The notes under the pieces: model-generated
The model's input: the letters and a program-made list of their open reading frames with translations, nothing else
Databases searched by the model: none
What the model was told of the DNA's origin: nothing
Source of the DNA: an uncultured Actinomycetes bacterium
Lineage (GTDB): Bacteria; Actinomycetota; Actinomycetes; Mycobacteriales; SCTD01
Assembly: GCA_963784675.1 (NCBI GenBank)
Contig: CAWASE010000013.1
Location: 226,660 to 290,659 of the forward strand
DNA length: 64,000 nt
Direction of reading: 5' to 3'
In this document: piece by piece, positions 32,206-40,165 of the stretch
Layout of the letters: each line of letters opens with the position of its first letter
Position numbering within the stretch: the stretch's first letter is position 1
Translations under genes and position numbers: made by a program

Positions 32206-32898
32206 TCAGGCGTTCGCGACCGTGGCCTGGCTCGGCGTCTGGACCGAGGTCGGTGACTGCTGCGGCGAGGGGGTCGTCGCCGCGTCGGTGTCGGGGCCGG
32301 GCCCGTCCCCGTGCTTGCTGGCGGGGCCGTGCCCGCCTCCGTGGTGGCCGCGACCGCCCCGCGGCGGTCCGGTCCGATCGACCCGGTCCGCCACCTCTGC
32401 GGCGAGACCGGCCTTGCGGGCGTCGGCCTGCGCCTGCGTGAGACGACCCGCGGCGACCGCCTCGGTCAGCCGCTGCTGGCCGGCGGCGACGAGCGAGTCG
32501 ATCAGGGCCTGCTTGGCGACGCCGTGAGCAGCAGCCACCTGGGCCAAGGTCTTGCCGGACTGCAGCTCGGTGCGCAGCTGGGCCGGCGTCAGGCCGAGCA
32601 GGTCGGCGATCTCCTGGGCGCCGGCTTCCCGTCCGCCGGGTCCGGCGGCGCGCTGGTCTCCGGCGGCGCGCTGGGGCGGCGTCGCCTGCAAGGTGCTCGC
32701 GACCTTGTCGGCCTGCGCCTGGGTGAGGGTGCCGTCGGTGACGAGACCCTTGAGGGCGTCCGTCAGCGCCGACAGCCGGCCGCCCACGCCCGATCCGGGG
32801 TCGGCCTGAGCGGCAGCGGGCAGCAGCACGGCCCCGGCCAGCCCGAGGGAGCCGGCCAGGGCGGTGCCGGCGACCGTGGTCACGAGGCGCTTGCGCAT
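32206..32898 (-). CDS. secreted LTxxQ-motif protein with Gly/His-rich tail (paralog of 39453-40115)
   Basis: The ATG at 32898 is preceded by GGAGGA. Signal peptide ...LLPAAAQA-DPG. Motifs TLTQAQADKV, GLTPAQLRTEL and RLTQAQADAR. The tail reads PPRGGRGHHGGGHGPASKHGDGPGPD. Confidence 0.7.
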   Translation of the reverse strand: MRKRLVTTVAGTALAGSLGLAGAVLLPAAAQADPGSGVGGRLSALTDALKGLVTDGTLTQAQADKVASTLQATPPQRAAGDQRAAGPGGREAGAQEIADLLGLTPAQLRTELQSGKTLAQVAAAHGVAKQALIDSLVAAGQQRLTEAVAAGRLTQAQADARKAGLAAEVADRVDRTGPPRGGRGHHGGGHGPASKHGDGPGPDTDAATTPSPQQSPTSVQTPSQATVANA

Positions 32899-32961
32899 GG
32901 GTCCTCCGTCGTCAGGGCCCGCGTCGTCGCGGGCGCTCTGGCGTCCACTGTGGCCGCGCAC

Positions 32962-32990
32962 CCTGTGACGCGGCTGTGACGGGCCTGTGA
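32962..32990 (-). promoter_or_regulatory. three 11-nt-phased PhoP-box-like heptamers (TCACAGG, TCACAGC, TCACAGG on the minus strand)
   Basis: The + strand reads cctgtgacgcggctgtgacgggcctgtga. The heptamer T residues are at 32990, 32979 and 32968. The element lies 63 nt upstream of the ATG at 32898, in the same orientation as the gene. Confidence 0.55.
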
Positions 32991-33006
32991 GTGCGGTGCC
33001 GGTCGC

Positions 33007-33956
33007 TCACAGGGCCCGCGGCGCCCACGCGACCGCTGCCGCCGCGGCGCCGACCGTGGCCAGCAGCGCGAGCCCGGCCGCTGGCGCGCCGACCGGCTGT
33101 CGTTCGGTGGTGGTCCCGAGACTGCTGCCGATGTCGGCATAGACCGCGGTGAGCTGCTCGCCGTCGGCCGCCTCGTACGCGCTGCCGTCGGTGCCGGCGG
33201 CGAGCTGGGCGAGGGCGGGGGCGTCGACCGGGACGCCGCAGGGACCGCCGGTCGACGGTGACGGTGCCCTGCTGGGTGCCGTACGCGATGGTCGAGACGG
33301 GGACGTGCGCCGCCGTGGCCAGGGCCGCCGCGGCGTCGATGCTGCGGCCGGCGGTGTTCGCGCCGTCGGACAGCAGGACGATGTGCGCGGGGACCGGGTC
33401 GCCGCCACCAGGGACGGCGTCGACGGCCGACAGGGAGGCTGCGACGGCTTCGCCGACGGCGGTGCCGTTGCCCGAGCCGCAGCGGTGCCGATGGCCCGCT
33501 CGACAGCGAGGTGCTCCTGCGTGGCGGGGACGACGACGGCGGCGGTGCCGGAGAAGGCGACCAGGCCGACGTTGAAGCGCGCAGGCAGCCCGTCGACGAA
33601 GGACTGGGCGGCCGCCTTGGCGGCGGTGAAGCGGTCCGGAGCGACATCGGTCGCCGCCATCGACAGCGAGACGTCCAGGGCCACCACGACGGTGGCCCGC
33701 TCGCGTGGCACCTGGACCTCGGCGGACGGGTCGGCGAACGCCGCCGTCGACCCGGCCAGCGCCGTCAGCACCAGAGCCGCGCCGGACGTGCCGGCGCCAG
33801 CCGAGCCGGGGCGCGACCGACGCAGCAGGTCCAGGCCGGTGAGCCGGACGGCATAGCGGCTGCGCCGGCGTTGCGCGAGCACGTACGCCGCGCCGAGGGC
33901 GACGACGACGAGAGCAGCCAGAGCCGCCCGGGATGGTCGAAGACGAGCCCGGTCAT
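33007..33956 (-). pseudogene. VWA domain-containing protein (BatA-like), reading frame broken about 3 times
   Basis: MTGLVFDHPGRLWLL..., MIDAS VVVALDVSLSMAATDVAPDRFTAAK, FNVGLVAFSG, then GNGTAVGEAV...HIVLLSDGANTAG...VSTIAYGT in another frame, then VPVDAPALAQLAAGTDGSAYEA back in the first. It is collinear with the intact paralog at 35975-36949. Frame changes lie near 33905, 33485 and 33253. Confidence 0.6.
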
Positions 33957-34895
33957 GCCGCACCCGCCCGGACGCGCGGCGCCGCGGGTGCGGCGCCGGA
34001 CGGTGAGGAAACGGGCGAGCTGCGGGAGCCAGTCGGTCGTCGGTCAGCACGACCAGGTGCCCGGCGCCGGCGCGCGTACCGCCTGGCGCTGCGCGCTCGC
34101 CCGCTCTGCGGCCGCGGCGGCATAGCGCGCACGCGTCCGGGCGTCCGTGCGCAGGGTGACCCCGGCCCCGCCGGTCCGGGATCGGCGAGCTCAGGACGCC
34201 GACCGCGGGCAGGCTCGAGCTCGCGGCGGTCGACGACCTGGGCGACGAGCGACGTCGTGCCGGGCGGCGAGCAGCCGCAGCGGGCGCGCCAGTCTCGACC
34301 GGGTCGAGCAGGTCGCTGACCACGACCACCATGCCGCGGCGGCGCGGGCGGGCGACCACCGCCCGCGGGCCGGCGGCGAGGTCGAGGGGGCCCTCGCGGT
34401 GCGACGCGGGGCTGGCGCAGCAGCGCCGGACGAGCGCGCGTGGACCCGGCGCGTCCGGCGCGGGCCGGCAGCGTGGCGCACGGCGTGCCCGTCGACCACC
34501 AGGGCCCCGACGCGGTCGCCGGGCCGGGTGCCCAGGTGCAGGAACGCCGCGGCGAGCGCCAGCGCGACCTCGCGCTTCTCCGCGGTGGCCGTCCCGAAGG
34601 ACATGGACGCGGAAAGGTCTACCAGCACGGTGGTCTCGAGCTCCCGCTCGGCCACGGTCATCCGTACGTGCGGGGTCGTGCTGCGGGCGGTCACGGCCCA
34701 GTCGATGCGGCGGACGTCGTCACCGGGTGCATAGGCGCGGGCCTCGGCGGCCTCGGTACCGGGCCCCGGCAGAGAGCCCAGGTGGTCGCCCTGCACGAGC
34801 CCGTCCAACCGTCGGGAGACGTCGTACGGGAGCCGGCGCAGCCGGGCGGGCGCGGCGAGAGGGGGCGGCGGCAAGGCCGTCGGCGCGCCTCTCAT
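33953..34895 (-). pseudogene. DUF58 domain-containing protein, reading frame broken many times
   Basis: The ATG at 34895 sits in an ATGA overlap with the inferred moxR stop. YAPGDDVRRIDWAVTARS...TVLVDLSASM is in one frame. RRRGMVVVVSDLLDP, WARPLRLLAARHDV, LVAQVVDRRELE, LPAVGVL, ELADP, GVTLRTDARTRARYAAAAAERA, HLVVLTDD and DWLPQLARFL are scattered over all three frames, indicating at least 8 indels. Confidence 0.55.
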
Positions 34896-39352: not shown

Positions 39353-39367
39353 CAGCCGGGTCACAGC
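39350..39367 (+). promoter_or_regulatory. PhoP-box-like direct repeat TGACAGC-N4-TCACAGC
   Basis: It starts at the phoR stop codon and lies 86 nt upstream of the ATG at 39453. The spacing is 11 nt, and the orientation is the same as at the phoP promoter. Confidence 0.45.
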
Positions 39368-39452
39368 AGCAGCGGGGACTCCTGCCAGCCGGGAGGACGA
39401 GGTTGATGACATCGCAGGCCGACCAGGCCCGCCCCGCTCCCAGGAGAACCTC

Positions 39453-40115
39453 ATGCGCACCAAGCTCGCCACCGCCGCTCTGATCGGCTCCCTCGGCCTG
39501 ACCGGCGTCGCCGGCGCGGCCCTGCTCTCCCCGGCCGTGTCCTACGCGGCGACCGGTGCCGCGACCGCCGTCTCGGACCGCGCCGCCTCTCTCGCCAGCA
39601 CGCTGAAGGGTCTGGTGAGCGACGGCACCATCACCCAGGCGCAAGCCGACAAGGTCGCCTCCACGCTCGCCGCGGCGGCTCCGGCCCGCGGTGACGGCGG
39701 CCCCGGGCACGGCCGCGACGGAGGCGGCGGCGGCCGGGTCGACCAGGCCGCTGCCGCCACCGCGCTGGGCCTGTCCGCCGACGCGCTGCGGACGCAGCTG
39801 GACGCGGGCAAGACCCTCGCGCAGGTCGCCGACGCCCAGGGCGTGGACCAGGCGACGCTGGTGAAGGCGCTGGTCACCTCGGCGAAGGGGCGGCTGGCCG
39901 ACCAGGTCGCCTCCGGCCGGATCACCCAGGCGCAGGCCGACACCCGGGCCAGCACCCTGCAGGCCGAGATCACCGAGCACCTGGACGACGTCTGCCTGCC
40001 CGGGGGCGGCGGCCCGGGCCACGGCCCGCGCGGCAACGACGGTGACGCCGACGACGCCCCGGCCACCACCGCGTCGCCCGCTCCCGCGACGGCGGGCGCC
40101 GGCAGCGCCGCCTGA
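39453..40115 (+). CDS. secreted LTxxQ-like protein with Gly/His/Asp-rich tracts (paralog of 32206-32898)
   Basis: AGGAGA RBS. Signal peptide ...LLSPAVSYA-ATG. LKGLVSDGTITQAQADKVASTL is nearly identical to the paralog. GKTLAQVADAQGVDQATLVKALV...RITQAQADTR. Tracts GDGGPGHGRDGGGGG and PGGGGPGHGPRGNDGD. Confidence 0.7.
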   Translation: MRTKLATAALIGSLGLTGVAGAALLSPAVSYAATGAATAVSDRAASLASTLKGLVSDGTITQAQADKVASTLAAAAPARGDGGPGHGRDGGGGGRVDQAAAATALGLSADALRTQLDAGKTLAQVADAQGVDQATLVKALVTSAKGRLADQVASGRITQAQADTRASTLQAEITEHLDDVCLPGGGGPGHGPRGNDGDADDAPATTASPAPATAGAGSAA

Positions 40116-40131
40116 CCCCGCTCCACCCCTA

Positions 40132-40165
40132 CGACAGCCGGCTCCCGAGAGGGGGCCGGCTGTCG
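40132..40165 (+). terminator. stem-loop terminator
   Basis: cgacagccggctccc-gaga-gggggccggctgtcg. A 15-bp stem with one G-U pair, 17 nt after the stop codon. Confidence 0.6.

Follow-up and report, generated by a model that had tools for sequence, protein, structure and literature searches.

A PhoPR orthologue flanked by genes for secreted DUF2680-like proteins with predicted PhoP boxes in an uncultured Actinomycetes bacterium

Introduction

The induction of a neighbouring secreted protein by a two-component system is an already known kind of regulation, with CpxP and ZraP of Escherichia coli as examples and HbpS as a related case. Here we describe a locus in which an orthologue of the Mycobacterium tuberculosis PhoPR system is flanked by two paralogous genes for secreted proteins, each preceded by predicted PhoP-type boxes. 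The locus lies in a 64,000-nt stretch of an uncultured Actinomycetes bacterium (GenBank assembly GCA_963784675.1, contig CAWASE010000013.1, positions 226,660 to 290,659, forward strand). This whole stretch is referred to as the window, and coordinates are counted from its first nucleotide. The response regulator is denoted RR and the sensor kinase HK, the two secreted proteins are denoted SecM (minus strand) and SecP (plus strand), and the family to which they belong is called the Sec family.

In M. tuberculosis, PhoP (Rv0757, with the kinase PhoR, Rv0758) binds the site TCACAGC-N4-TCACAGC with a strict 4-bp spacer (PMC4832192; consensus from chromatin immunoprecipitation sequencing (ChIP-seq) reviewed in PMC4620462). 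The locus in the window shares with this system an orthologous RR with identical DNA-contact residues, the 7-bp motif with its strict 4-bp spacer at the RR's own promoter, and the domain order of the kinase. It differs in that the operon is flanked by two boxed genes for DUF2680-like secreted proteins, and no such secreted partner is described in two accounts of the M. tuberculosis PhoP regulon (PMC4620462, PMC4038636).

A second likeness is to the CpxP-CpxAR and ZraP-ZraSR systems of E. coli, where the two-component system induces a secreted protein that acts back on its kinase. In these, as here, a small exported all-helical protein carries two LTxxQ-type motifs at hairpin turns, and its gene adjoins the two-component genes and carries binding sites of the regulator, the latter being predicted in the present case. 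The Gly/His-rich segments are shared with ZraP in particular. However, no sequence or fold homology of CpxP or ZraP to the Sec proteins was detected, and ZraR belongs to a different regulator family from the RR. Actinobacterial three-component systems include HbpS-SenS-SenR of Streptomyces, CseA-CseBC and LpqB-MtrAB, where HbpS is a DUF336 octamer while CseA and LpqB are lipoproteins. All three resemble the present locus in that an extracytoplasmic protein is encoded beside an actinobacterial two-component system, but the proteins belong to unrelated families and the Sec proteins are without a lipobox. A further likeness is to Pfam DUF2680, the family of Bacillus subtilis YckD, which is likewise exported and contains a G-x-LTxxQAD helical-hairpin unit, although the window proteins fall below its gathering threshold and possess an extra three-helix module. 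No functional study of DUF2680 or YckD was found in a literature search.

Results

PhoP-type boxes at three promoters

The genes and boxes that make up the core of the locus are as follows.

37143..37877, plus strand: phoP orthologue, an OmpR-family response regulator (RR), intact
37874..39352, plus strand: phoR-like sensor kinase (HK) with HAMP, HisKA and HATPase_c domains, intact
39453..40115, plus strand: SecP, 220-aa secreted paralogue of SecM
32206..32898, minus strand: SecM, secreted protein of 230 aa, helical throughout; signal peptide, an LTQAQAD motif in each of two hairpins, linker and tail rich in Gly and His
37038..37066, plus strand: predicted boxes of the phoP promoter, facing phoP; exact TCACAGC-aagc-TCACAGC (TCACAGCaagcTCACAGC) at 37038-37055, followed by a degenerate third repeat, GCCCAGA
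32962..32990, minus strand: predicted SecM boxes, TCACAGG-cccg-TCACAGC-cgcg-TCACAGG, three 11-nt-phased copies forming two overlapping sites directed toward SecM
39350..39367, plus strand: predicted SecP boxes, TGACAGC-cggg-TCACAGC (TGACAGCcgggTCACAGC), overlapping the phoR stop codon and facing SecP

Inspection of open reading frames (ORFs) and domains gave the same gene order and strands as an earlier note on this sequence. That note had also reported an exact TCACAGC-N4-TCACAGC pair in the 193-nt divergent region upstream of phoP, and 11-nt-phased copies ahead of each terminal secreted-protein gene. Both are present, the former at 37038-37055 and the latter as three boxes before SecM and two before SecP. 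The second phoP box ends 88 nt before the phoP ATG, the SecM array 64 nt before the ATG at 32898, and the SecP pair 86 nt before the ATG at 39453. Each array faces its own gene, 60-110 nt ahead of the start codon.

A motif scan, a check that the note had proposed, showed strong enrichment at these promoters. With up to 1 mismatch, TCACAGC-N4-TCACAGC occurs 4 times in the window against 0.04 expected, and none of 100 shuffles reached 4 sites. All 4 sites fall at the three predicted promoters (phoP, SecM and SecP), and every remaining match to the paired box in the window has 3 mismatches. The same scan extended to the 1.24 Mb of the comparative set introduced below, at up to 2 mismatches, gave 15 sites, each no more than 300 nt upstream of a Sec or RR gene.

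The response regulator and kinase

The RR consists of a receiver and an OmpR/PhoB-type winged helix (Response_reg, 5e-31; Trans_reg_C, 4e-29). It matches M. tuberculosis PhoP (3r0j/9ji3) with 341 bits, compared with 199 for PrrA, 174 for MtrA and 163 for RegX3. In the PhoP-DNA crystal structure, base or groove contacts are made by N212, V213, E215, S216, Y217, Y220 and R237 (PMC4832192), and in an alignment to PhoP the RR has the same residue at each of these positions, which belong to helix alpha8 and the wing. Judged by this score and these residues, M. tuberculosis PhoP and the RR are orthologues, in keeping with the close relationship claimed in the earlier note.

The RR and HK reading frames overlap by GTGA. 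The HK has two hydrophobic segments around a loop of ~120 aa (HK residues ~46-170), as read from the sequence, and these are followed by HAMP, HisKA and HATPase_c. It matches the dimerisation and histidine phosphotransfer (DHp) fragment of M. tuberculosis PhoR (5ukv, the only piece of PhoR in the PDB) with 88.8 bits. The closest relatives of the system are found in metagenome-assembled genomes (MAGs) of Frankiales and Mycobacteriales.

SecM and SecP belong to a very large family

SecM and SecP are 47% identical (E = 1e-33), which bears out the proposal that the two terminal genes are paralogous. Both have a signal-peptide-like N-terminus (by inspection), two (L/I)TQAQAD motifs and Gly/His-rich linkers, and the exact SecM protein is present in a public collection. 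The (L/I)TQAQ motifs occupy residues 59-64 and 156-161, each between predicted helices. In the family alignment, the signal peptide and a helix ending in G-T-(L/I)-T-Q-A-Q-A-D come before a Gly/His linker. Beyond the linker lie the conserved segment LGxTxxELRTxxxAGKTLAQ, the second motif as GR(L/I)TQAQAD and, last, a tail rich in Gly, His and Pro. An AlphaFold2 model is all-helical (mean predicted local distance difference test (pLDDT) score of 72.5, rising above 93 for core residues 98-179), with both TQAQAD motifs at hairpin turns.

Neither protein reaches a Pfam or NCBIfam threshold. The sole profile match is a weak one to DUF2680, at 17.9 bits against a gathering threshold of 25, and this profile (PF10925) is also weakly matched by 20 of 25 relatives (best 2.3e-7). 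A word-indexed search returned 457 family matches. An exhaustive search among cluster representatives at 50% identity returned 16,574 at E <= 1e-3, 9,565 at 1e-10 and 1,538 at 1e-30. On the basis of these searches, the family is very large, uncharacterised and distantly related to DUF2680.

The earlier note had labelled the secreted proteins as LTxxQ/Gly-His proteins of CpxP/ZraP type. As a description of the motifs this is literally right, but membership of that family is not borne out by any profile or fold match. At E <= 0.1, none of 25 family members matches Pfam LTXXQ (PF07813) or Metal_resist (PF13801). The family profile found nothing better than E = 0.14 among PDB sequences, and Foldseek against the PDB gave a best E of 0.66, with no CpxP-family chain. 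Against CpxP and ZraP, hhalign returned probabilities of 0.1% and 2.6%, respectively. On these four comparisons, homology of the secreted proteins to CpxP, Spy or ZraP is rejected as unsupported.

Two further features of the family were observed. The C-terminal module, ~100 residues long, occurs as 2-7 repeats in many members, yielding proteins of up to ~1,200 aa (P0121, P0123, P0151, P0157, P0176 and P0193). A SecP-type subgroup has a single conserved Cys before the C-terminal Gly-rich segment (DDVC-LPGGGG; 39988-40040 in the window, A1 columns ~205-215), which is absent from SecM. This residue could act in disulfide formation or metal binding.

Relatives of the locus and their linkage to two-component systems

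The comparative set consisted of 80 family loci from a genome scan (1.24 Mb in total), drawn from Actinomycetota, Chloroflexota and one Bacillota. The Frankiales MAG locus L002 encodes an RR and HK that are 87% and 70% identical to the window proteins. Its synteny with the window covers the minus-arm side and the whole operon (SDR, WS/DGAT, Sec on the opposite strand, RR, HK, Sec), with Sec and RR directly divergent. Within the 209-nt Sec/RR intergenic region, a Sec-facing array, TGACAGG-tccc-TCACAGG-tgcg-CCGGAGG-tccg-TCACAGG (minus strand), and an RR-facing array, TCACAGG-agac-TCACAGC, are both found, and a degenerate three-box array lies ahead of the downstream Sec gene. In L003, Sec is preceded by four phased boxes and RR by three. 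Degenerate phased arrays are visible by eye in both L003 and L017. Cultivable carriers of the Sec family include Motilibacter peucedani (P0064), Blastococcus sp. DSM 44205 (L017) and Cellulomonas sp. (L052). The conservation of gene neighbourhood on which the earlier note had staked its proposal is therefore partial: divergent Sec and RR-HK-Sec with boxes recurs in L002, but MoxR/VWA genes are not kept.

Across the set, an OmpR-type RR lies within 2.5 kb of the Sec gene in 29 of 80 loci, where ~4% would be expected by chance (a rough estimate taken from regulators further out). Three arrangements are seen, namely RR-HK-Sec, divergent Sec and RR, and Sec-RR-HK. Boxes also precede Sec genes with no two-component system within 10 kb, as is the case in L004, L005, L007, L021, L034, L041, L052 and L073.

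Box sequence co-varies with the recognition helix

Four types of recognition helix can be told apart among the linked regulators, and the 11-nt-phased repeats before the Sec genes differ accordingly.

Helix NVVE[ST]Y, PhoP-type: TCACAGC; 15 of 15 sites next to Sec or RR starts
Helices SKNLAVY and SKSLDVY, not PhoP orthologues: TCT[CT]ACC, also before RR genes; 21 of 27 and 23 of 24 sites next to Sec or RR starts
Helix ERTIDSH, Chloroflexota: TCTCCAT-N4-TCTCCAT; 7 of 12 sites next to Sec or RR starts

No locus was found that mixes the box type of one group with the regulator type of another. Of all the evidence for direct control of Sec genes by the linked regulators, the co-variation of repeats and helix is the strongest. 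Taken together with the linkage described above, it leads us to view the Sec family as a conserved direct target of several two-component clades.

Phased TCT[CT]ACC repeats precede Sec and a linked RR in L018, L022, L024, L030, L033, L037, L047, L061 and others, the recognition helix of these RRs being SKNLAVYISYLRRK or SKSLDVYIGYLRRK. TCT[CT]ACC is the predicted binding motif of these uncharacterised OmpR-type clades of Acidimicrobiia and other Actinomycetota. In Chloroflexota, TCTCCAT-N4-TCTCCAT lies ~60-170 nt upstream of Sec in L055, L056, L064, L066 and L080. In L055, L056, L066 and L080, Sec is followed by an RR with helix ERTIDSHIKNLRKK.

The MoxR/VWA block

In the window, four minus-strand genes lie between SecM and phoP.

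35975..36949, minus strand: vwa1, 324-aa BatA-like VWA membrane protein with VWA domain and BatA N-terminus, intact
34892..35936, minus strand: moxR, AAA_3 ATPase with lid domain; body intact, one frameshift ~17 codons before the TGA at 34892
33953..34895, minus strand: DUF58 gene, with ~8 frameshifts and in-frame stops
33007..33956, minus strand: vwa2, BatA-like VWA gene, with ~5 frameshifts

Profile matches assign AAA_3 MoxR, DUF58 and BatA-like VWA membrane proteins to this block as one operon, and VWA1 matches NCBIfam PRK13685. The content is that of known MoxR-DUF58-VWA clusters (Bat aerotolerance-type; Rv1479-Rv1481 in M. tuberculosis), which likewise combine MoxR, DUF58 and a BatA-like VWA protein. 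Unlike in those clusters, one VWA gene here precedes moxR, three of the genes are frame-disrupted, and the position at the side of phoPR is lineage-specific.

The earlier note had regarded the block as an envelope output of the regulator. In its full form this model unites PhoPR, the MoxR/VWA operon and both secreted proteins in one co-regulated envelope system, and it draws on the position of the vwa1 start, which is 89 nt from the exact box pair within the shared 193-nt divergent region, and on L032, where a MoxR-DUF58-VWA-VWA cluster lies 2.5 kb from a Sec gene. We nevertheless consider the model very unlikely to be correct. The block between Sec and phoP is missing in the syntenic L002 and is absent from L003. 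Only 2 of the 80 loci have MoxR at a distance of 10 kb or less from a Sec gene, and in none of them does it separate Sec from RR. No box in the window is oriented toward vwa1, even at 3 mismatches, and the 3' end of moxR, DUF58 and vwa2 are frame-disrupted in the window sequence. On synteny and neighbourhood counts we reject MoxR/VWA as a conserved component of the system. The 4-kb vwa1-moxR-DUF58-vwa2 block sits exactly between two arrays that are adjacent in L002 and point in opposite directions. By this comparison, it is a MoxR cluster of the ordinary kind that was inserted there in this lineage.

The coordinates given in the earlier note imply lengths of 1045 nt for moxR, 943 nt for DUF58 and 950 nt for vwa2. 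None of these lengths is divisible by three, and in this sequence no one of these genes forms an uninterrupted ORF. The disruption was traced by frame tracking with the GC content of third codon positions (GC3), three-frame translation, tblastn with the intact homologues of L032 and frameshift-aware alignment. According to the last of these, moxR has one frameshift near its 3' end, DUF58 has 8 and vwa2 has 5, which concentrates ~14 frameshifts in the 1.7 kb of 34943-33256. Because of these frameshifts, moxR and the N-terminus of DUF58 read as a single 940-aa ORF (34191-37013). Real pseudogenisation of a decaying inserted operon would fit the presence of so many frameshifts while the flanking genes are intact, as well as the lineage-specific nature of the block, but appears unlikely. 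The disrupted stretch begins inside moxR and stops inside vwa2 without following gene borders, each shifted piece retains high GC3 and similarity to its homologues, and unrelated genes elsewhere in the window, at ~516-2097 and ~55504-56574, carry similar clusters. For these reasons a sequence error or locally poor consensus is the likely cause, in preference to selective decay.

The cluster at ~516-2097 (plus strand) affects a gene resembling flavin adenine dinucleotide (FAD)-dependent oxidoreductases such as KstD or fumarate reductase. It has GxGxxG at the N-terminus and is broken into at least 4 ORFs that overlap and differ in frame. At ~55504-56574 (minus strand), one dehydrogenase-like gene is likewise split among four ORFs of differing frame. 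A crude GC3 segmentation applied to the entire window proved too noisy for counting frameshifts, and verification by eye covered the three clusters.

Ends of the locus and other features

Both arms of the locus end at a strong stem-loop, as the earlier note had it.

32163..32192, minus strand: 13-bp GC-rich hairpin 3' of SecM (-37.1 kcal/mol, z = -5.9)
40132..40165, plus strand: 15-bp GC-rich hairpin 3' of SecP (-38.7 kcal/mol, z = -3.5)

Neither hairpin is followed by a T-tract. The former is placed between converging genes and probably acts as a tail-less terminator. The GC content of the window is 70-77%. A scan found no canonical terminators or sigma-70 promoters, and Rfam and tRNA scans of the window returned zero matches. 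An ORF at 42295-43005 (minus strand) has an N-terminus like an Lsr2-type DNA-binding segment (SDVRAWARKNGIEVADRGRLPADLRDAY), followed by a long Ala/Pro/Arg-rich tail.

Discussion

We consider it probable that the PhoPR orthologue acts at the TCACAGC arrays of phoP, SecM and SecP, that the Sec proteins are exported, and that the MoxR/VWA block is an insertion. Phosphorylated PhoP would bind the 11-nt-phased repeats, of which there are 2-4 per array, as head-to-tail tandem dimers or oligomers. Its targets would be three promoters, those of SecM, SecP and phoP itself, the last constituting autoregulation. Autoregulation of phoPR in M. tuberculosis is reported in references cited in PMC4038636. 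The arrays would abut or overlap the -35 region and so activate transcription. We favour activation because the arrays face their genes at 60-110 nt before the start codon.

Several observations weigh against this proposal. No RR is present in the examined flank of 51 of the 80 family loci, and about half of the loci are without recognisable repeats at the thresholds used. The choice of activation over repression is inferred from box geometry alone. MtrA-type regulators are reported to recognise a similar GTCACAgcg motif, and therefore another regulator could use the boxes. In M. tuberculosis, a PhoP ChIP peak is located in the Rv0756c-phoP intergenic region, yet expression of Rv0756c is unchanged (PMC4038636), so a nearby box is no guarantee of regulation.

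If the boxes were bound by a different OmpR-family regulator encoded elsewhere, for example MtrA with its similar reported motif, the adjacency of phoPR would be incidental; the boxes ahead of unlinked Sec genes would also be accommodated. This appears highly improbable, given that the exact PhoP motif known from systematic evolution of ligands by exponential enrichment (SELEX), crystallography and ChIP is present, that the DNA-contact residues of the local RR are identical to those of PhoP, that the same boxes occur at the RR's own promoter, and that the box type switches with the subfamily of the linked RR. The role of the secreted proteins themselves is more evenly contested. They may be plain regulon effectors that act as envelope chaperones or as metal or proton buffers by way of their Gly/His segments and exert no feedback on the kinase, adjacency then reflecting co-regulation. 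Such a role is a serious possibility, if somewhat short of an even chance: boxes precede Sec genes at the eight loci with no two-component system within 10 kb, many members are multi-repeat proteins of 300-1200 aa that look more structural than regulatory, and there are weak profile matches to the small helical phage protein SPP1 gp23.1. On the other hand, the family is linked to four regulator subfamilies in three independent gene arrangements, and Sec can be the first gene before RR-HK, a pattern typical of accessory proteins.

Our tentative preference, held at rather less than even confidence, is that SecM and SecP are envelope partners or feedback modulators of the extracytoplasmic loop of the kinase. 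Such an accessory or feedback role is favoured because linkage to different two-component clades recurs, including in Sec-first operons. By analogy with CpxP, it could be extended further, such that the DUF2680-like secreted family would represent an independently evolved, CpxP-like and extracytoplasmic co-sensor or feedback module of several OmpR-type clades in Actinomycetota and Chloroflexota, ancestral PhoPR included, with the Gly/His segments reporting pH or metal to the kinase loop. We regard this extension as speculative and rather doubtful.

The novelty lies in the protein family, in the link between this family and orthologues of PhoPR, and in the co-variation of boxes across regulator clades. 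A literature search found no paper on a link between the Sec family and PhoPR, and nothing relevant on PhoPR accessory proteins. PhoPR is a master virulence regulator of M. tuberculosis, and signal sensing by its kinase continues to be debated. Environmental relatives have PhoPR between genes for secreted proteins that carry its predicted boxes, and matching cis-elements connect the Sec family to at least 3 further groups of OmpR-type regulators from two phyla. A large orphan family (9,565 cluster representatives at E <= 1e-10) thereby gains a first functional context and becomes a candidate for a new class of proteins that serve two-component systems as accessories or signature targets. Predicted motifs for uncharacterised regulator clades also follow from the co-variation of box and helix. 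Should the family act as co-sensors, it would open an experimental route to the signal that PhoR-type kinases sense.

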